Source: a phage. From it: a DNA stretch of 43,104 bases. Shown one piece after another: positions 2,918-23,388 of the stretch. How positions within the stretch are numbered: position 1 is the stretch's first letter; each line of letters begins with the position of its first letter. Where the stretch lies: the sequence record PZ445418.1; one strand, 5' to 3'. A model generated the notes under the pieces. It worked only from the letters and a program-made list of their open reading frames with translations. It was not told the origin of the DNA and ran no database searches. The position numbers and the translations under genes are program-made.

Positions 2918-4004
2918 TCAATATATGGCGGACCGCATGATCCGCCGTCACATCTTCACCCAGCGCCTGAGCAATGACCAGGCGCGGAGGGTGCTGGCTA
3001 TGTGGGAGAAGTTCCGGCCCACGTTACTGGGTAAGCTGACCGAGTTACTTGATGGCAAAAAGTCCATGAACAACAAGGCACTTACCACTTTGTTAACGCA
3101 ACTCGACAAGACCGTTAAAGCAGAATTGCGCACCGAGTTTAAGGCGTTGGCCGAAAGCCTTCAGGAGTTTGCCGACACCGAGGCCGATTATCTCGCCGAC
3201 ACATTGACGGCAGCGATCCAGCCGGTGGTCGCCGTACCGGCGGTCGAGGTGGTTGGCGTAGTGACCGGTGCGCAGATCGCAGCTACGGCAATGAAAAACC
3301 CGTTCCAGGGTAATACGATGATGCAATGGCCTGACTCACTTTCTGAGTGGACCAGGACGCAGATCGGCAATCAGGTGCGCGCCGGATTCATCCAGGGCAA
3401 GCCGACTATGGAAATTATTGCGGACGTGAGGCGCGCGCTAGGCGGTCGTAGTGCGCAAGCTATCTCGAGCGTTGTTAAATCCGCAGTAAACCACTATGCG
3501 GCGACGGCCCGCGAACTAATGGTAAAAGCAAATGACGATATTCTCGAAGGTCGCCAATGGTTATCTACATTGGACACGCATACTTCTCCCATGTGCCAGC
3601 TACGCGATCGCCTGTTCTATCCGGTCGATGTTACTCCCACTACAAAAGGCAAGCGCGGCGGGAAAGTGGTGGCGGGATCACAATATGGCGCTGGTCCGGG
3701 CAAGCTGCATTATTGCTGCCGTTCGACGGAGACGTGGAAAGTCAAAGGTATGGAAGATTGGCCCAGTGGTAAGCGTCCGGCACTGAAGGCCGACGCAGGC
3801 AGATTGCTGAGTGAGCAGGTCGACGCGCAGACTGATTTCTTCTCATGGGTGCAGCGCCAGCCGCGCCATATCCTGGAGGAATTATATGGAGTGCAACGCG
3901 CCGACCAGATTATGCGCGGCGTGAAAGTGCCGAAGATGTTTACCGATTCTGGCGAACTGATGACTATTGCACAGCTTAAAAACCGGGGGTTATGGCGTGA
4001 TTAA
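2901..4004 (+). CDS. MuF-like minor head / head morphogenesis protein
   Basis: 367 aa, follows portal; C-terminal W-STLD-THTSPMC segment resembles Mu F family. Confidence 0.55.
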   Translation: MAKTINQYMADRMIRRHIFTQRLSNDQARRVLAMWEKFRPTLLGKLTELLDGKKSMNNKALTTLLTQLDKTVKAELRTEFKALAESLQEFADTEADYLADTLTAAIQPVVAVPAVEVVGVVTGAQIAATAMKNPFQGNTMMQWPDSLSEWTRTQIGNQVRAGFIQGKPTMEIIADVRRALGGRSAQAISSVVKSAVNHYAATARELMVKANDDILEGRQWLSTLDTHTSPMCQLRDRLFYPVDVTPTTKGKRGGKVVAGSQYGAGPGKLHYCCRSTETWKVKGMEDWPSGKRPALKADAGRLLSEQVDAQTDFFSWVQRQPRHILEELYGVQRADQIMRGVKVPKMFTDSGELMTIAQLKNRGLWRD

Positions 4005-4305
4005 GTATGCAGCGATTGGGCTGGTAATTGGCCTGGCGGTTGGATTCTGGCAGGGTGATTCCTACCGCACTGGCGTTGAGGCGAGAGCGGCGCAAGAAGC
4101 GCAAGCGAAAGCCCAACGGCAGCAAACTAAGGTTGTCGAGGGGGCTGTGCAGGCAGAACAGGCCCGCGATGTGGAATACCGGACTATCACGAAAGAGGTT
4201 GTTAAATATGTTACGCGCCCTAACCGCCCTGATTGTAGTTTTGATTCTGAGCGCGTGCGGATCAAGCAACGTGCCATTGATGCCGCTAACCGAGTCGGTT
4301 TATAG
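3997..4305 (+). CDS. putative i-spanin (Rz-like)
   Basis: N-terminal TM helix (IKYAAIGLVIGLAVGFW) then Ala/Gln-rich helical domain; GTG at 3997 preceded by GGGGG; a TTG at 3967 is the alternative start. Confidence 0.4.
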   Translation: MIKYAAIGLVIGLAVGFWQGDSYRTGVEARAAQEAQAKAQRQQTKVVEGAVQAEQARDVEYRTITKEVVKYVTRPNRPDCSFDSERVRIKQRAIDAANRVGL

Positions 4306-4438
4306 ACCGCCTTGCACCTTTGAGAATGCCTCGGCAGACCCAGACGAAGACTTGCTTGTTGATGTTAAAAATATGGAGTGTGGGGCAAAGTTAAGGGCGC
4401 AAGTGCTGGAGTTGCAGAAAATAATTCGGGGGCCGTGA
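4208..4438 (+). CDS. putative o-spanin (Rz1-like lipoprotein)
   Basis: starts inside the Rz-like gene in another frame; lipobox LSAC after hydrophobic signal; RBS AAAGAGG 9 nt upstream of ATG; Pro/Cys-containing mature part. Confidence 0.45.
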   Translation: MLRALTALIVVLILSACGSSNVPLMPLTESVYRPPCTFENASADPDEDLLVDVKNMECGAKLRAQVLELQKIIRGP

Positions 4439-16030: not shown

Positions 16031-16638
16031 CCACGTTTAAATTGTACGGCGTCTTAGGGCGTCGTTTTGGTAAAGTGCATAAGCTGGACTGCTTCACACC
16101 AGGCGAAGGCATCACCGGCCTGTGTGTGAAGTTGCCAGGGTTACAGGACTTTCTAATGTCGGCCCACCTGGACAATATGATGTTCAAGGTGCGCAAAGGC
16201 AACCACACGATGACCGGCTATGATGAACTGGGCGAGTTCCACGGCAACCGCGTCGTTACCATCGCGCCGGTTATGACTGGCGCAAAAAGCGGATTGGGCC
16301 AATTGCTGGCGGGTGTCGCGATCGTAGTGGCGTCGTTCTATACGGGCGGACTTGCTACTGCCGCTTTTGGGGCTTCGGCGGCAACCGCTGCCGCTATCGG
16401 TACGGCGACGTTTTCGTTCGGGATGTCGATGGCGCTGGGTGGCGTTATGCAATTGCTGTCGCCACAACCGAAAGGATTGCAGACACGGCAGGACGTGGAT
16501 AACAAGGCGTCGTACGCGTTCGGCGGACCGGTGAACACAACCGCGCAAGGCACGGCACTTGGTGTATTATGGGGCGAGCGTGAGATCGGCGGCGCTATTA
16601 TTTCAGCCGGAATCGTAACCGAGGACTTGAACGAATGA
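16021..16638 (+). CDS. tail assembly protein gpI-like
   Basis: 205 aa, Gly/Ala-rich hydrophobic C-terminal half, directly upstream of gpJ-like gene. Confidence 0.6.
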   Translation: MAMTTFKLYGVLGRRFGKVHKLDCFTPGEGITGLCVKLPGLQDFLMSAHLDNMMFKVRKGNHTMTGYDELGEFHGNRVVTIAPVMTGAKSGLGQLLAGVAIVVASFYTGGLATAAFGASAATAAAIGTATFSFGMSMALGGVMQLLSPQPKGLQTRQDVDNKASYAFGGPVNTTAQGTALGVLWGEREIGGAIISAGIVTEDLNE

Positions 16639-19600
16639 CGATTATCTACAACGTCACAGGGCATAAAGGCGGCGGCGGCAAACAGCACACTCCGCAGGAA
16701 ACGCCGGATAGCCTGCATTCCCTGGCTAAAATCCGCATCTTGCTTGCGCTAGGGGAAGGGGAATTCGAAAGTATTACCAGCGCCAGCGAATTACGGCAGC
16801 GTGTATATCTGGACGGCACTCCGATCCAGAACGCCGACCTGTCGGAAAACTTCCCCGGCGCGCGCGTGGAGTTCCGCCCGGGCACACAGCACCAGGACGT
16901 GATCCACGGATTTTCAGCGGTAGAAAGCGAGCAATCCGTCGGTGTAAAACTGGAAAACGGCACGCCGTGGGTGCGCCAGATTAATGACACCAGTCTTGAC
17001 GCCGTGCGCATTCGAATCGGCATTCCGGCTTTGTACACCAACGAAGATAACGGCGACCTGGTGGGCGGGCGCATCGACTATAAAATCGTTGTGTACACCG
17101 ATAACGCCGACCCGCGCGAGTTCAACTTCGCTGCCGTTGGTAAAACAATGTCGCTGTATGAGCGCGACCACCGCATCGAATTACCGCCGAACGTGAACAC
17201 CGGCTGGCGCGTGGAAGTGCACCGCACAACGGCGGATTCCACATCGGCGAAAGTGGTGAACGATATCCGGGTACAATCAATCACTGAGATTATCGACGCC
17301 CGTCTGCGCTACCCGCTAACCGCGCTGTTGTTCGTGGAGTTCGACGCTAAGGCGTTCCAGAACATCCCGCGCGTGTCCATCAAGTGCAAAGGTCGCAAAG
17401 TGCTGGTCCCGAACAACTACGACCCGATTAATCATACCTATTCTGGCGACTGGGACGGCACGTTCAAACGCGCATGGACGGATAACCCCGCGTGGCACTG
17501 GTACGATATTTGTATTACTGAGCGCTTCGGCCTCGGGCGTAGGATCAAGCCGCAAATGCTGAACCGGTACGCGCTATACCAGATTGCGCAGCGCTGCGAC
17601 CAAATGGTCAGTGACGGCAACGGCGGGCAAGAAATCCGCTTTAAGAATGATATGTACATTCAATCGCAGACAGACGCCTGGACCGTGCTTAAGGATTTAG
17701 CAGCTATCTTTGCCGGTATGACCTGGTGGGGCAACCAGATGTTGAATATCGTCAGTGACCAACCGGTAGCAGCAGTGTCTCACACTATCACCAACGCCTC
17801 GGTTATTGATGGTCGATTCGACTACGCGTCAGGGAGCCAGAAAACTCGGTATTCCACGTTCGCGGTAGCATACGGCAACCCGAAGAACCACTATGATGAT
17901 GCCATCGCAACGGGACAACGTGTCGAACTGGTACGCCGCCATAAGATCAACCGTCTTGATATCACGGCGATTGGCTGTACGCGTGAATCTGAAGCGCAAC
18001 GCCGCGGGCACTGGGCGCTAATATCCAACCAGCTTGACCAGCAAGTTAGCTTCAAAGTTGGCATGGAAGGGTTATTCTTTATTCCGGGTAGCGTAGTCGC
18101 GATCGCGGATACAAACATTTCTGGCGGCTTCGAGTCCCGAGGCGGTCGCCTGTTGTCAGATCCAGGCACGCGTACCGTGCTGAACACGGACTGCGAAATC
18201 ACGTTCCGTCCGGGTGATAAATTCCTGGTACGCACCGATAGCGGGAATGTGGAGACTCGCGAGATCGCCAGCGTCAACGGCAACCAGGTAACGCTAAAAA
18301 CCGCACTGGACGCCAACCCTATTCCTGATCAGCCGTTTTGCGTTGATGGCGACGATATCCAGTTGCAGAAGTTCCGCATAACCGACCTGGAATATGACGA
18401 CTCTACCAGCACTTTCTCGGTGCGTGGGATTGAATACAACGATAGCAAGTATGATGCCGTTGATAATGGCGCTCGCCTTGACCCTGGCATCTTCACGCAA
18501 GTGCCTGACGGCGTAATGAAGGGGCCAGAATCCGTGACCATAACCCCGTCGCAGATTTCATCGCAAGGCCAGCTAATCACCAACGTGGATATTGTTTTCC
18601 CGCCGGTGAAGGATGCCGTTGTATATGAAATCCAGTGGCGACGAACCAGCTTGCAGAATATGGAAATCCAGTGGGGTAACGACTGGGTGAACATCCCCCG
18701 CACGGCATCGAACGGCGCGCACATCCCGAACGTGTTTTCCGGGAACTATCAGGCGCGCGTTCGCGCAATCGGTATGGGCGAAATTTCATCCCCGTGGGTG
18801 TCTTCCGCAATCACGCCGGTGGAAGGTCGCCTCGGCGGGCTTAATGCGCCAATCATCACCAACGCGATTTCAGGTTTGCACCAGATCCTATGGAAGTGGA
18901 ACCACAACAACGCCGCTACGGATATTTCGCACACCGAGCTTGAAGTCCGCAAGACGGGTGAGACGGAATGGAGGTTCCTAACCAACGTCCCATACCCTGG
19001 GTCGGAGTATGCGCAAACGTCGCTGGAGTTCGGCATCTATCAGCAGTTGCGCGCCCGTGTAGCGGATAAAATCGGCAACCTGTCGGACTGGTCCGCCCCG
19101 TTTGAAGGCCAGGTGAGTGACAAAGTTGACGAGTACATGAAGGGGCTTGATGACGAGTTCTTGACGTCCGAGGATGGCAAACGCTTCCAGGAAGCGATCG
19201 ACACCATGCCGCAAGGCATTTATGAGGCCATGCTAACGGACGCACAGCAGTTGTTTAACGCCCGCGCCGAGTACAAGGGGATTTATGCAGAAATCTCGGT
19301 CGCGTATAACGTGGCGGCAGATGCCCGCCAGGCGGTAGCGCAACTGGAAACGTTGATCGGCACTCGCCTTGACGATGCTGAAGCGGCAATCCACACGTTG
19401 CAGACCGCGCAGAGTACGCAGGAACAAGCGTTCGCCCAGTACCAGCAAACTGTTGCCGCTAAGTTCGGGGAACAGGAAGCCGCCATCCAGCAGGTACAAA
19501 CGGCAACCGCAGACGTTGCGGGAGCGCTGGCGGAGTATAAGACCCAGGTCGCGGCGCAGTTTGATCAGCAGTCCGCAGCTATCGAGCAGAAGATGACGTC

Positions 19601-20054
19601 TTCGTTTAACCATGCCGGTGGCAACGCCACATACAGCCTTAAGGCAGGCGTGACGTATAACGGGACTTACTATGATGCCGGTATGCAGCTTTCCGTCGTG
19701 GCGGAAGGCGGCGCGGTTAAATCGCGTATTGCGTTCAAGGCGGACCAGTTCTACATCATGCACCCATCTAATGGGTCGCTTTCGTCCGCGTTTATCGTTG
19801 ACGGTGGTCAGGTGTACATCGACACCGCCCGCATCAAGAATGCGTCCATTAACTTTGCGCAGATAACGGACACGTTGCAGTCCAACAACTACGACGGCAG
19901 TACTCGAGGATGGCGCTTAGGTAAGGATGGAACGTTTATCAACCTGGGGACTGGAAGCGGTGGTGGTACAAAGCAGACCAACACCAACTACAGCGTTAAA
20001 GACGAGAACGGTGTTTTACGCGTGCAACTTGGCGAGCTTACTGGTCGCTGGTAG
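16635..20054 (+). CDS. central tail fibre / host specificity protein (gpJ-like)
   Basis: 1139 aa (lambda J about 1130 aa), position after gpI-like. Confidence 0.8.
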   Translation: MTIIYNVTGHKGGGGKQHTPQETPDSLHSLAKIRILLALGEGEFESITSASELRQRVYLDGTPIQNADLSENFPGARVEFRPGTQHQDVIHGFSAVESEQSVGVKLENGTPWVRQINDTSLDAVRIRIGIPALYTNEDNGDLVGGRIDYKIVVYTDNADPREFNFAAVGKTMSLYERDHRIELPPNVNTGWRVEVHRTTADSTSAKVVNDIRVQSITEIIDARLRYPLTALLFVEFDAKAFQNIPRVSIKCKGRKVLVPNNYDPINHTYSGDWDGTFKRAWTDNPAWHWYDICITERFGLGRRIKPQMLNRYALYQIAQRCDQMVSDGNGGQEIRFKNDMYIQSQTDAWTVLKDLAAIFAGMTWWGNQMLNIVSDQPVAAVSHTITNASVIDGRFDYASGSQKTRYSTFAVAYGNPKNHYDDAIATGQRVELVRRHKINRLDITAIGCTRESEAQRRGHWALISNQLDQQVSFKVGMEGLFFIPGSVVAIADTNISGGFESRGGRLLSDPGTRTVLNTDCEITFRPGDKFLVRTDSGNVETREIASVNGNQVTLKTALDANPIPDQPFCVDGDDIQLQKFRITDLEYDDSTSTFSVRGIEYNDSKYDAVDNGARLDPGIFTQVPDGVMKGPESVTITPSQISSQGQLITNVDIVFPPVKDAVVYEIQWRRTSLQNMEIQWGNDWVNIPRTASNGAHIPNVFSGNYQARVRAIGMGEISSPWVSSAITPVEGRLGGLNAPIITNAISGLHQILWKWNHNNAATDISHTELEVRKTGETEWRFLTNVPYPGSEYAQTSLEFGIYQQLRARVADKIGNLSDWSAPFEGQVSDKVDEYMKGLDDEFLTSEDGKRFQEAIDTMPQGIYEAMLTDAQQLFNARAEYKGIYAEISVAYNVAADARQAVAQLETLIGTRLDDAEAAIHTLQTAQSTQEQAFAQYQQTVAAKFGEQEAAIQQVQTATADVAGALAEYKTQVAAQFDQQSAAIEQKMTSSFNHAGGNATYSLKAGVTYNGTYYDAGMQLSVVAEGGAVKSRIAFKADQFYIMHPSNGSLSSAFIVDGGQVYIDTARIKNASINFAQITDTLQSNNYDGSTRGWRLGKDGTFINLGTGSGGGTKQTNTNYSVKDENGVLRVQLGELTGRW

Positions 20055-20057
20055 TAT

Positions 20058-20076
20058 GGGGCTTCGGCCCCTTTTT
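20058..20076 (+). terminator. intrinsic terminator
   Basis: GGGGC-ttcg-GCCCC followed by TTTTT. Confidence 0.65.
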
Positions 20077-20089
20077 AACGAGGTTATTT

Positions 20090-20392
20090 ATGGCATTCGG
20101 TATCGCAACGTGGGACGCGCAAGGACGCCCAAACAACTACGGCATTAAACCGGTAAGCGTGATCGGAAGGATTCATCTTGCGGAAGGACAAAAATCAGGC
20201 GCATGGTCATTCCCTGTGCCGGCGGGGATGAAGGTCGGATACGTGGTCGCACTGGATAAAGGCGCGGTCGGGCCAGGACGCAGAATAACCGCCAGCGGGA
20301 ACACTATCACGGTTTCCGCGGCAAGTGAGGTTGGTGGCGGGGTTTACTCCGCATCTGAATGTGACGTTATTGTTTTTGTGGAGCGAGCATAA
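20090..20392 (+). CDS. hypothetical tail-associated protein
   Basis: 100 aa ORF with RBS GAGG, downstream of gpJ-like. Confidence 0.45.
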   Translation: MAFGIATWDAQGRPNNYGIKPVSVIGRIHLAEGQKSGAWSFPVPAGMKVGYVVALDKGAVGPGRRITASGNTITVSAASEVGGGVYSASECDVIVFVERA

Positions 20393-21066
20393 TGGCTAAT
20401 TACGGCGCGTTGATTGACTTACCAAACGGCAACCCGTTTATCACGCCAGAATCGACGCCGTTTTGTCTATTCCGCCGTGTGGTTGTTGGGTCTTCGGCTA
20501 ACGGCACTGCGCAGTCGGCGGCTGCCGATATTAATTTGGGCGGTGACTACCCTGCAATAGCGTTTGTGAAAACTACGAACACCGCCCAGCCGACCGTCGT
20601 AGGGTCTTCTCGCGTTGGTAATGTGGTGAAGGTGAGCGCCAGCAATCCATTTGGGCAAGGATTCACGATGACGGCATACATCTTTGCCATATTCCCACAG
20701 ACCCTTCCGCGGTGGGGCTTCGCTATTTGGGATAAGACGGGGAGGCTAGTGCTGACGAACGAGAGCCGGGTACTAAGCGATTTAGTTACCGTCGGATCGC
20801 CAGGCGCTAACGGGGGGATTAACATTGACCAGACGCTAAACGGCAGCTACGCCGTCGCTCCGGGCATATTGGGGTCTACGCTGATCCGGTTTTTTGTGCA
20901 GGGCCAGCCGCAGGTAATATCGGTAACGGCGTACACGGGGGCCAGATTTGATGGGTCGCGAACGCGTATATCGGCAGCGTCGTCGGGGAACGCCACGGGG
21001 GATGTGGTTGGGTATACTAACAACGGCAACGCGATTATGGCGATTAACACTGCCAATTATGATTGA
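20392..21066 (+). CDS. hypothetical tail-associated protein
   Basis: 224 aa, ATGA-type coupling to previous gene. Confidence 0.45.
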   Translation: MANYGALIDLPNGNPFITPESTPFCLFRRVVVGSSANGTAQSAAADINLGGDYPAIAFVKTTNTAQPTVVGSSRVGNVVKVSASNPFGQGFTMTAYIFAIFPQTLPRWGFAIWDKTGRLVLTNESRVLSDLVTVGSPGANGGINIDQTLNGSYAVAPGILGSTLIRFFVQGQPQVISVTAYTGARFDGSRTRISAASSGNATGDVVGYTNNGNAIMAINTANYD

Positions 21067-21068
21067 AG

Positions 21069-21090
21069 AAAGCCCCGAAAGGGGCTTATT
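21069..21090. terminator. bidirectional intrinsic terminator
   Basis: AAGCCCC-gaaa-GGGGCTT between convergent genes; overlaps lipoprotein stop. Confidence 0.6.
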
Positions 21091-21304
21091 TGCAGGTTGT
21101 GCTTTTGAAATGGCCTACAGACACGTACTGGAAACTAAACGGATAGCCAGCCCGTAACATTTTATGACCGCTAACGTCCGCAACCCCAAACACAGGGACT
21201 GAGTACTCCATACCACTATTCATGTATGTTGCGTCGCAGATTTTAGACGGCATATTGGCACAACCGGACAAAAGAACCACACAAATCATAATTAAAGTTT
21301 TCAT
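21086..21304 (-). CDS. small lipoprotein, candidate Cor/Llp-like superinfection exclusion protein
   Basis: MKTLIMICVVLLSGC signal with lipobox LSGC; AGGAGA RBS; antisense to tail genes next to fibre locus. Confidence 0.55.
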   Translation of the reverse strand: MKTLIMICVVLLSGCANMPSKICDATYMNSGMEYSVPVFGVADVSGHKMLRAGYPFSFQYVSVGHFKSTTCK

Positions 21305-21334
21305 GGTATCATCTCCTATATTTGGTTGGGTTTT

Positions 21335-21363
21335 AGTATTGCACCGCTCAACCAAGAATGCAA
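21335..21363 (-). promoter_or_regulatory. sigma70-like promoter TTGCAT-17-AATACT for lipoprotein gene
   Basis: hexamers with 17-bp spacer; -35 overlaps TGCAACCAAT (21359-21368). Confidence 0.4.
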
Positions 21364-21384
21364 CCAATTTATGAGGATTCAGCT

Positions 21385-23388
21385 ATGGCAGCGGGTACAC
21401 TATCCGTAACGAATAACAGCAAGGCGGTAGTCGGTGTCGGCACGACGTTCACCGCGTTTAAAGCTGGCGACTTCTTAACGTTGGTGGTGGGGCAAGTCCC
21501 TTACACTGTTGCTATCGCGTCCGTCGAAAGCAACACCGCGCTTACGCTGGTGCTGCCGTTCGACGGCCCCACGGCAACCGGCCTTGCCTGGGATGGCGTT
21601 GCGCGTGATACCATGTCCCTGGCGACGATGGGCGTAACAGTCCAGGCGCAGAAAGCATTGCGCTTGATGATTGCAGATGAAAACAACTGGCGTGCCATCT
21701 TCGGCGACGCTGAAGAAATCACAGTGACGTTACCAAACGGGCAGGTTATGCAGGGCATGTCATGGGGCTATCTGTCAAGTCTTCTAAAAGACGTTGACCC
21801 GGTGGAGCTTCAGAATATTGCCAACCAGGCTGTAACCGCGAAAAACGATGCTGTGTCTGCCAAGAATGATGCGCAGACTGCGAAGACTGCCGCAGAAACA
21901 GCGCGCACGCAAGCCCAGTCGGCTAAGACCGCCGCAGAGTCAGCACGTGACGACGCGCAGACGGCTAAGACCGCCGCAGAAACAGCACGCACCCAGGCAC
22001 AGACCGCGAAGACCGCCGCAGAAACCGCCAAGGGTGCGGCGGAAGACGCCCGCGATGAGGCGAAGCAATATGCAGAGCAAGCCGGAGCACCATATAAGCA
22101 GGTATTACAACCGCTACCAGACGTGTGGATTCCGTTTAACGATTCGCTGGATATGCTCGCAGGCTTCGCGCCCGGATACAAGACGGTTACGGTAGCCGAC
22201 GACGAGGTTACTATGCCGAGCGACAAGGTGGTGTCGCTCAAGCGCGCATCAACGGCAACATATATTAACAAGTCCGGCGAGTTTAAAATCGCAGAGATTG
22301 ACGAGCCGAGATTCGAAAAATACGGCCTGCTCATTGAAGGCCAACGCACTAACCACATCATCAACGGGGGCGCTCCGGCTGGCTGGGGCCACAGCACATC
22401 GGTTGGCGTGGTTACGGGTACAGATGCTTTCGGTTTCTTGTATGGAAAGTTTGGTATCGGCCAGGGCGACGTGGGCAGTACGACTGTGCTTAACCTGGCT
22501 TCCGTAACATCAGCAAACAGTCTGGATACTTCCGGCGTCGATAAGTATGTAACGGCGTCATGCCGCTTTCGGTCCGACAAGGATGTACGTCTTCGTGTGC
22601 GTTTTGCAGAAGGCGCGGATCAAGGCAGCATGGCTTTCTCTGGCGACGCGTACATTAAATTAAGCGATTTGTCCGTGTCTAAGACGGGTGTCGCGGCAGA
22701 CCGCATTACCGTAGAAGTCGAGAAAGACGAAGCCACCGGATGGAATCGTGCGGTGGTAATGCTGCAAGCTACCACGGCGCTGGTGAACGCGCAGATCCAG
22801 ATCTCGCCAGTGAGCAGTTATGCTGCCGGTGATTATATCGAACTGGCAACTCCGCAGGTTGAGTTAGGGATCGGGGCGTCTTCATATATCATCTCCGGCA
22901 CATCTCCAACCACACGCGCTAGCGATATGGTGACGGTACCGGCTAACCGCAACCTGTATAACCTGCCGTTTACGGTGCTTGTAGAAGTGCACAAGAACTG
23001 GTCTAAGGCGCCGAACGCAGCGCCGCGTGTATTCGACACCGGCGGTCATCAATCGGGTGCGGCTATTATCCTGGGATTCGGGTCTGGCGATATTGACGGG
23101 TATCCGTACTGCGACATCGGCGGTGCTCACAGACGTTTGAATGAAAACGCAGGGCTTAAGCATATGGTTATGGGTATGCGTGTGAAAGAAAACCAGGACA
23201 CTTGCGCGGTGAGTAACGGCATTCTTTCGACCGAATCGAAAACCACATGGACCTACCTGAAAGGGTCTGCGACGCTGCGAATCGGGGGTCAAACAACGAC
23301 TGGAGACAGACACCTGTTCGGGCACGTCCGTAACTTCCGTATCTGGCATAATGCGCTGACCGACCTACAAATGGGGGAATTAGTGTGA
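21385..23388 (+). CDS. tail fibre protein (Ala-rich repeat shaft, C-terminal lectin-like domain)
   Basis: RBS GAGGA; tandem TAKTAAETARTQAQ-type repeats; C-terminal F-R-I-W-H-N-A-L-T-D segment resembles LamG/ConA-like fold. Confidence 0.65.
   Translation: MAAGTLSVTNNSKAVVGVGTTFTAFKAGDFLTLVVGQVPYTVAIASVESNTALTLVLPFDGPTATGLAWDGVARDTMSLATMGVTVQAQKALRLMIADENNWRAIFGDAEEITVTLPNGQVMQGMSWGYLSSLLKDVDPVELQNIANQAVTAKNDAVSAKNDAQTAKTAAETARTQAQSAKTAAESARDDAQTAKTAAETARTQAQTAKTAAETAKGAAEDARDEAKQYAEQAGAPYKQVLQPLPDVWIPFNDSLDMLAGFAPGYKTVTVADDEVTMPSDKVVSLKRASTATYINKSGEFKIAEIDEPRFEKYGLLIEGQRTNHIINGGAPAGWGHSTSVGVVTGTDAFGFLYGKFGIGQGDVGSTTVLNLASVTSANSLDTSGVDKYVTASCRFRSDKDVRLRVRFAEGADQGSMAFSGDAYIKLSDLSVSKTGVAADRITVEVEKDEATGWNRAVVMLQATTALVNAQIQISPVSSYAAGDYIELATPQVELGIGASSYIISGTSPTTRASDMVTVPANRNLYNLPFTVLVEVHKNWSKAPNAAPRVFDTGGHQSGAAIILGFGSGDIDGYPYCDIGGAHRRLNENAGLKHMVMGMRVKENQDTCAVSNGILSTESKTTWTYLKGSATLRIGGQTTTGDRHLFGHVRNFRIWHNALTDLQMGELV

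Follow-up and report, generated by a model that had tools for sequence, protein, structure and literature searches.

The cor genes of phages phi80, N15, HK022 and mEp167 confer exclusion when expressed from a prophage or from a plasmid. The Cor proteins of these four phages are experimentally characterised inactivators of FhuA (10.64898/2026.03.26.714494; PMC13164509). Functional inactivation of FhuA by Cor is credited to Uc-Mass 2004, as cited in 10.64898/2026.03.26.714494, and one study is reported to have Cor depend on further proteins of the outer membrane (Arguijo-Hernandez 2018, as cited in PMC13164509). How Cor works at the molecular level, unlike the T5 lipoprotein Llp, is unsolved (10.64898/2026.03.26.714494). 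Cor and Llp form one structural family with a disulfide common to both (PMC9586334; 10.64898/2026.03.26.714494). A cassette containing cor has been described for T1, HK022, N15, ES18 and phi80 (PMC13164509; PMC8594841), and it accompanies the use of FhuA in the BASEL phages of the Drexlerviridae and of the genus Dhillonvirus (PMC13164509; PMC8594841).

The sequence analysed here (PZ445418.1; 43,104 nucleotides, hereafter the window) is that of a Dhillonvirus. It begins at the large terminase gene. Its nearest matches are GeorgBuechner, Envy and other Dhillonviruses over the first 20 kb, with an identity of about 92%, and Escherichia phage rolling over the region 20000..22500, with 99%. A small minus-strand gene in this region is in our reading cor, the superinfection-exclusion lipoprotein gene of an FhuA-dependent Dhillonvirus, to which we assign a probability of about 0.88. 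This cor is not new. Its product is 100% identical to rolling_58 (QHR66357.1), annotated as "super-infection exclusion protein", and genes of this kind are already published: beside the public annotation, they are treated by Wietzorrek 2006, as cited in PMC13164509, and in PMC8594841, PMC10373560 and PMC13164509. The features of the locus are collected in Table 1.

Table 1. Coordinates of the cor gene, its signals and its neighbours in the window
Feature	Position	Strand	Details and basis
J-like central tail fibre / tail tip protein gene	16635..20054	+	37-38% identical over the full length to phi80/N15 J
p100, phi80/N15 gp22 orthologue (cassette gene 1)	20090..20392	+	70-73% identical to phi80/N15 gp22
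p224, phi80/N15 gp23 orthologue (cassette gene 2)	20392..21066	+	57-64% identical to phi80/N15 gp23
GC-rich hairpin AAGCCCC-GAAA-GGGGCTT, probable two-way terminator	21070..21087		fold z-scores, compensatory substitutions
cor, predicted Cor-family superinfection-exclusion lipoprotein precursor (72 aa)	21086..21304	-	ATG at 21304, TAA at 21088..21086
Predicted lipoprotein signal peptide, lipobox LSGC	21260..21304	-	translation
Shine-Dalgarno sequence AGGAG	21313..21317	-	8 nt 5' of the cor ATG; from the sequence
Candidate cor promoter	21335..21363	-	-35 TTGCAT (21363..21358), 17-nt spacer, extended -10 TGC-AATACT, -10 at 21340..21335
Lateral tail fibre gene	21385..23388	+	divergent from cor over 80 bp; equivalent to rolling_59 and bas16_0028

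The cor gene and its product

The program-made list of open reading frames contains a 93-aa frame with a TTG start (21086..21367, minus strand). The true start of cor is the internal ATG at 21304, not this TTG. The Shine-Dalgarno sequence in front of the ATG has counterparts in the relatives, where it reads AGGAG, AGGGG or AGAGG. The full precursor of 72 residues is MKTLIMICVVLLSGCANMPSKICDATYMNSGMEYSVPVFGVADVSGHKMLRAGYPFSFQYVSVGHFKSTTCK. Compared among six Dhillonvirus orthologues, cor exhibits pN/pS values of 0.06-0.23 with pS up to 0.49, which indicates that the frame is real and under purifying selection. Since every neighbouring gene lies on the plus strand, its antisense placement is real as well.

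The N-terminus of the protein, MKTLIMICVVLLSGC followed by ANMPSK..., consists of an n-region MK with Lys2, a hydrophobic core TLIMICVVL and the lipobox L-S-G-C at residues 12-15. From this sequence, mature Cor would begin at Cys15, which would carry the lipid. Bacterial lipoproteins are sorted according to the residue at position +2. This residue is alanine in the window protein, not aspartate, which predicts sorting of Cor to the outer membrane.

The signal peptide also attracts weak matches to spanins, and one could take the product for a lipoprotein of lysis, either the Rz1-like outer-membrane subunit of a spanin or some other, on the strength of Pfam O_Spanin_T7 (E-value = 0.094) and of PHROG 6073 and 456 (E-value = 0.13-0.21). 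Pfam has no Cor family, and a spanin match below threshold on the signal peptide is the only one that it gives. All these matches are limited to the signal peptide (residues 1-21), no partner i-spanin gene is found nearby, and the phage has its own overlapping i-spanin/o-spanin pair at 3967..4438, annotated as such in GeorgBuechner. A role as spanin or lysis lipoprotein is thus extremely improbable, and we rejected it on account of the matches confined to the signal peptide and the separate spanin pair. This spanin pair lies between head-morphogenesis genes, and the lipobox of its o-spanin is LSAC. In GeorgBuechner the spanin genes stand well apart from those for holin and endolysin, which occupy about 41.3-42.4 kb.

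In contrast to these partial matches, similarity to Cor extends over the whole protein. Residues 1-72 match positions 1-75 of the 78 in PHROG 1119, "Cor superinfection exclusion protein" (E-value = 9.7e-28). With the NCBIfam equivalog model NF047972, "phage exclusion lipoprotein Cor", which has a cutoff of 31 bits, residues 2-71 align to positions 2-76 of the 78 in the profile at a score of 58.8 bits. By blastp the protein is 51% identical to the Cor of T1, 40% to that of phi80 and 41% to that of N15 (E-values from 1e-21 to 1e-16). A single-sequence search of a large protein collection returned six close relatives only; the wider Cor family was reached through an alignment seeded with the T1, phi80 and N15 proteins. 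The profile search of the large collection gave 203 homologues, many of them named "phage exclusion lipoprotein Cor" or "cor protein". Five residues (C15, C23, G53, P55 and C71) never vary among 92 aligned family sequences, and three more in the AGYPF motif (A52, Y54 and F56) are conserved in at least 90%. In a five-sequence alignment with the Cor proteins of T1, phi80 and N15 the RAGYPF motif is invariant throughout. A family-model match above its cutoff, the lipobox cysteine, the signature of the mature domain and the position in the cassette, the features of sequence and position by which membership of the Cor family was judged, were all found.

The preliminary description had proposed a candidate for exclusion of the Cor/Llp type, a 72-aa protein with the lipobox LSGC encoded opposite to the surrounding tail genes. 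The reading frame with its internal ATG and Shine-Dalgarno sequence and the plus-strand orientation of all flanking genes agree with this, and the assignment to the Cor/Llp type is borne out by PHROG 1119, NF047972, the identities to known Cor proteins, the synteny and the fold match to Llp (see below). Exclusion, lipidation, localisation and FhuA binding of the window Cor are properties that we infer from homologues 40-51% identical to it.

Cassette, flanking signals and local divergence

The gene order, J-like gene, gp22-like gene, gp23-like gene and cor, is the same as in phi80, N15 and T1. The J-like product is annotated as a central tail fibre or tail tip protein in the relatives, and its gene is followed by the cassette, in which cor comes third. 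The products of the first two cassette genes are 54% (p100) and 52% (p224) identical to their T1 counterparts, and respectively 100% and 99.1% identical to JLBYU60_25 and JLBYU60_26. Directly behind the J-like stop codon and ahead of p100 we noticed a strong hairpin, GGGGCTTCGGCCCC, that resembles a terminator and has TTTTT after it (20058..20081), so that the receptor cassette may be transcriptionally separate from the tail operon. On the other side of cor, the N-terminal part of the lateral fibre gene contains a 42-nt (14-aa) tandem repeat of the type AKTAAETARTQAQ in about 3.9 copies (21864..22028), which phage rolling annotates as a repeat_region. The 2501 bases of 20000..22500 in the window match 2522 bases of rolling, and the tandem repeat is a possible site of this 21-base difference.

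The GC-rich hairpin is located exactly between the stop codons of the convergent p224 and cor genes and overlaps the cor TAA. On both strands its stability exceeds that of shuffled sequence, with a folding energy of -12.4 kcal/mol (z = -3.4) on the cor strand and -14.2 kcal/mol (z = -2.8) on the plus strand. The stem varies by compensatory substitutions among the relatives: AGGCCCC/GGGGCCT in GeorgBuechner, AATCCCC/GGGGATT in Teewinot and AAACCCC/GGGGTTT in Pubbukkers. T1 has AAGCCCC-GCAA-GGGGCTT at the equivalent place. The T-tracts of the hairpin, UCUUCAAU and AUUUGC, are weak, and the consensus promoter and terminator scan did not call it. Some relatives have TTTC as the loop on the cor strand, others GAAA, over a stem preserved by the compensatory changes, and it looks as though the element had been inverted or exchanged between strands.

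The candidate promoter on the other side of cor has its TG and -10 elements conserved in all six Dhillonvirus relatives compared. It is sub-consensus and was missed by the scan, which requires four of six matches per hexamer. The 80-bp region between cor and the lateral fibre gene is 91-92% identical to the relatives against about 85% for cor itself, which is consistent with constraint on the intergenic region. Another weak promoter-like match of the scan, at 21312..21285, overlaps the cor start codon and was disregarded. Rfam and tRNA scans of the whole window gave no matches.

The preliminary description had also given the gene its own promoter and a bidirectional terminator, of which the terminator is borne out in part. 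For this, a hairpin with compensatory changes and stability on both strands stands; the weak T-tracts and the silence of the scan weigh on the other side, and a bidirectional terminator is a reasonable inference. For the promoter, what stands is a candidate with conserved TG and -10 that lies below the scan threshold, so that a promoter of its own is a putative attribute of cor.

The cor gene is a local hotspot of divergence beside the receptor-binding genes. Compared with Bas16, JLBYU60 and Teewinot, cor is about 85% identical in nucleotide sequence (pS 0.37-0.47, pN 0.06-0.09), against 97-99% for p100 and p224 (pS 0.04-0.09). The divergence of cor next to such conserved neighbours suggests that its alleles recombine on their own, with the hairpin and the promoter as breakpoints, and mosaic recombination at these two elements is probably the cause of the divergence. 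We rank such breakpoints as likelier than a locking of FhuA specific to each allele. The N-terminal strand of Cor is, besides, unusually similar to that of Llp. It is unlikely that Dhillonvirus Cor alleles are being exchanged or diversified independently of the receptor-binding genes, perhaps because each allele would lock FhuA in another state and so have its own cross-exclusion spectrum against competing FhuA phages. The comparison with phage rolling has another pattern: p100, p224 and cor are 100% identical in nucleotide sequence, and the J-like gene only 91.7% (pS 0.29). An identical cassette beside such a J-like gene implies that lineages have exchanged the receptor cassette recently.

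Predicted receptor

The products p100 and p224 are 97-100% identical to their counterparts in JLBYU60, GeorgBuechner and Teewinot. Dependence on FhuA has been shown for JLBYU60 and Teewinot (PMC10373560), and GeorgBuechner (Bas16) is listed with FhuA in the BASEL S5 table. Given this identity to FhuA-dependent phages and the presence of the full cassette, FhuA is predicted as the receptor of the window phage and as the target of its Cor. The suggestion of the preliminary description that the gene would point to the receptor is supported in this way.

Cor-like proteins also occur in BtuB-dependent Tempevirinae and in Markadamsvirinae phages (PMC13164509), and Cor alone is therefore no proof of FhuA. 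One might accordingly suppose that the window protein, as a Cor-family lipoprotein, acts on a receptor of the outer membrane other than FhuA, such as BtuB or some further TonB-dependent transporter, all the more as no gene of the locus is as diverged as cor, at the nucleotide identities given above for cor and for p100/p224. However, the complete three-gene cassette is present, and in BASEL phages it always goes with FhuA (PMC13164509); the BtuB-linked cases are without one of the two upstream genes. The near identity of p100 and p224 to the proteins of phages needing FhuA, and the unrelated cassette that an LptD-using Dhillonvirus has in the same slot, likewise argue against another target, which we consider very unlikely.

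With FhuA as the target, the locus is of some practical use. That a Cor-type exclusion gene can be recognised from sequence alone adds little in itself. From the three genes of the cassette that follows the J-like gene, the terminal receptor of this Dhillonvirus can be predicted to be FhuA, and the prediction may serve the choice of hosts, the anticipation of fhuA (tonA) resistance and the composition of phage cocktails without mutual exclusion. The window cor is also a convenient test case for the molecular mechanism of Cor, as opposed to that of Llp.

Fold, proposed mode of action and comparison with known systems

An AlphaFold2 model built on the family alignment predicts a small beta domain with good confidence: the mean pLDDT is 84.8, and the mature part reaches 93-94. 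Of 350,542 PDB chains, the model best matches 8a60_B, the T5 Llp in complex with FhuA (TM-scores 0.54/0.61, rmsd 3.0 A, 59 aligned columns, E-value = 0.033); fold-search E-values are modest because the domain is tiny. In BFVD, the CEC_Kaz_2018 orthologue comes first, followed by Llp-type and "receptor-blocking" lipoproteins of T5-like phages. On this model the window Cor has the Cor/Llp fold. By sequence, the Cor profile also finds 8a60_B as its top match in the PDB, at a marginal E-value of 0.0069 and over positions 1-45 only. Pairwise BLASTP between Cor and Llp gives 40% identity over the first 40 residues, about half of which are signal peptide.

The fold also bears on a different role for the product, as an accessory factor in assembly or host recognition for the receptor-binding proteins p100 and p224. 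It is true that cor always travels with two upstream genes of unproven function (PMC13164509). Such a role is nevertheless most unlikely, given that cor stands on the opposite strand with its own signals, that the export and lipidation signal would send Cor to the periplasm and away from virion assembly in the cytoplasm, that the cor genes of phi80, N15, HK022 and mEp167 confer exclusion from a prophage or plasmid, and that the model matches Llp, a periplasmic binder of FhuA.

For Cor as an exclusion lipoprotein we propose the following course of events. After infection, transcription of cor would start at its own promoter and run against the late tail genes, as the family suggests. The precursor would be exported, receive its lipid at Cys15 and end up in the outer membrane, on the periplasmic leaflet. 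A disulfide between Cys23 and Cys71 would join the two ends of the small beta domain. [quoted passage not shown] For KanT1 Cor, an AlphaFold3 model of the mature protein with FhuA lacking residues 1-70 has been made (PMC13164509). FhuA would be locked, with its surface loops closing allosterically as described for Llp (PMC9586334), and would refuse the receptor-binding proteins of phages. FhuA-dependent phages would no longer adsorb irreversibly, so that infection by the window phage and by others using FhuA (T1, T5, phi80) would be blocked. Progeny virions might also be spared from being wasted on the debris of lysed cells.

Two further lipoproteins resemble Cor in position or action. TheodorHerzl (MZ501107), an LptD-dependent Dhillonvirus, has a minus-strand lipoprotein gene of about 76 codons (bas14_0026) between its J-like and lateral fibre genes, as the window has cor. 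Its slot (L013, 3910..5075) encodes a putative receptor-binding protein of 311 aa and the 76-aa lipoprotein with the lipobox VGC, both on the minus strand. The last 40 or so residues of its J-like protein fail to align with those of the window protein. We rejected a kinship between the window Cor and this LptD-type lipoprotein, their match (E-value = 0.063) being confined to the signal peptide. The Rtp45-type lipoprotein of phage Rtp, to which bas14_0026 is the equivalent in this slot, is also periplasmic and blocks the phage's own receptor in the same manner (PMC12685063); the type differs in its target, LptDE, and in its partner, in TheodorHerzl the receptor-binding protein of 311 aa.

T5 Llp is, as the window Cor is predicted to be, a small outer-membrane lipoprotein of a virulent siphophage that uses FhuA. 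Its gene adjoins a receptor-binding gene and has its own promoter, as cor may have. Both proteins exhibit a pair of cysteines at equivalent ends of the mature domain (C9/C57 in the window Cor, C11/C58 in Llp; PMC9586334), and the N-terminal strand of Cor, ICDATYMNSGMEYSVPVF, resembles that of Llp, KCEAYYMQDHVKYKANVF. In contrast to Cor, Llp is without the RAGYPF motif. Its partner in T5 is the receptor-binding protein pb5, whereas the window has the pair of gp22/gp23 type; no gene of the pb5 (oad) type was found beside the window cor, its neighbours being gp22/gp23-like.

The resemblance to phi80 and N15 extends over the cassette of J, gp22 (100 aa), gp23 (224-225 aa) and cor, and over the full length of Cor (40-41% identity). 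In those phages cor has the orientation of the tail genes and serves lysogenic conversion, being expressed by the prophage, whereas in the window it is antisense and belongs to a virulent phage. The window protein also has 3 residues fewer in the segment that follows the lipobox. T1 is closer. It is virulent like the window phage, and its Cor shares with the window protein the length class, the lipobox, the two cysteines, the RAGYPFSF motif, the antisense orientation of the gene and the hairpin between the stop codons. The window protein is 3 residues shorter than T1 Cor, and downstream of cor T1 has recombination genes where the window has the lateral tail fibre gene. The Cor proteins of other Dhillonviruses, identical to the window protein in rolling and 75-94% identical to it in the remainder, exhibit no difference of substance.
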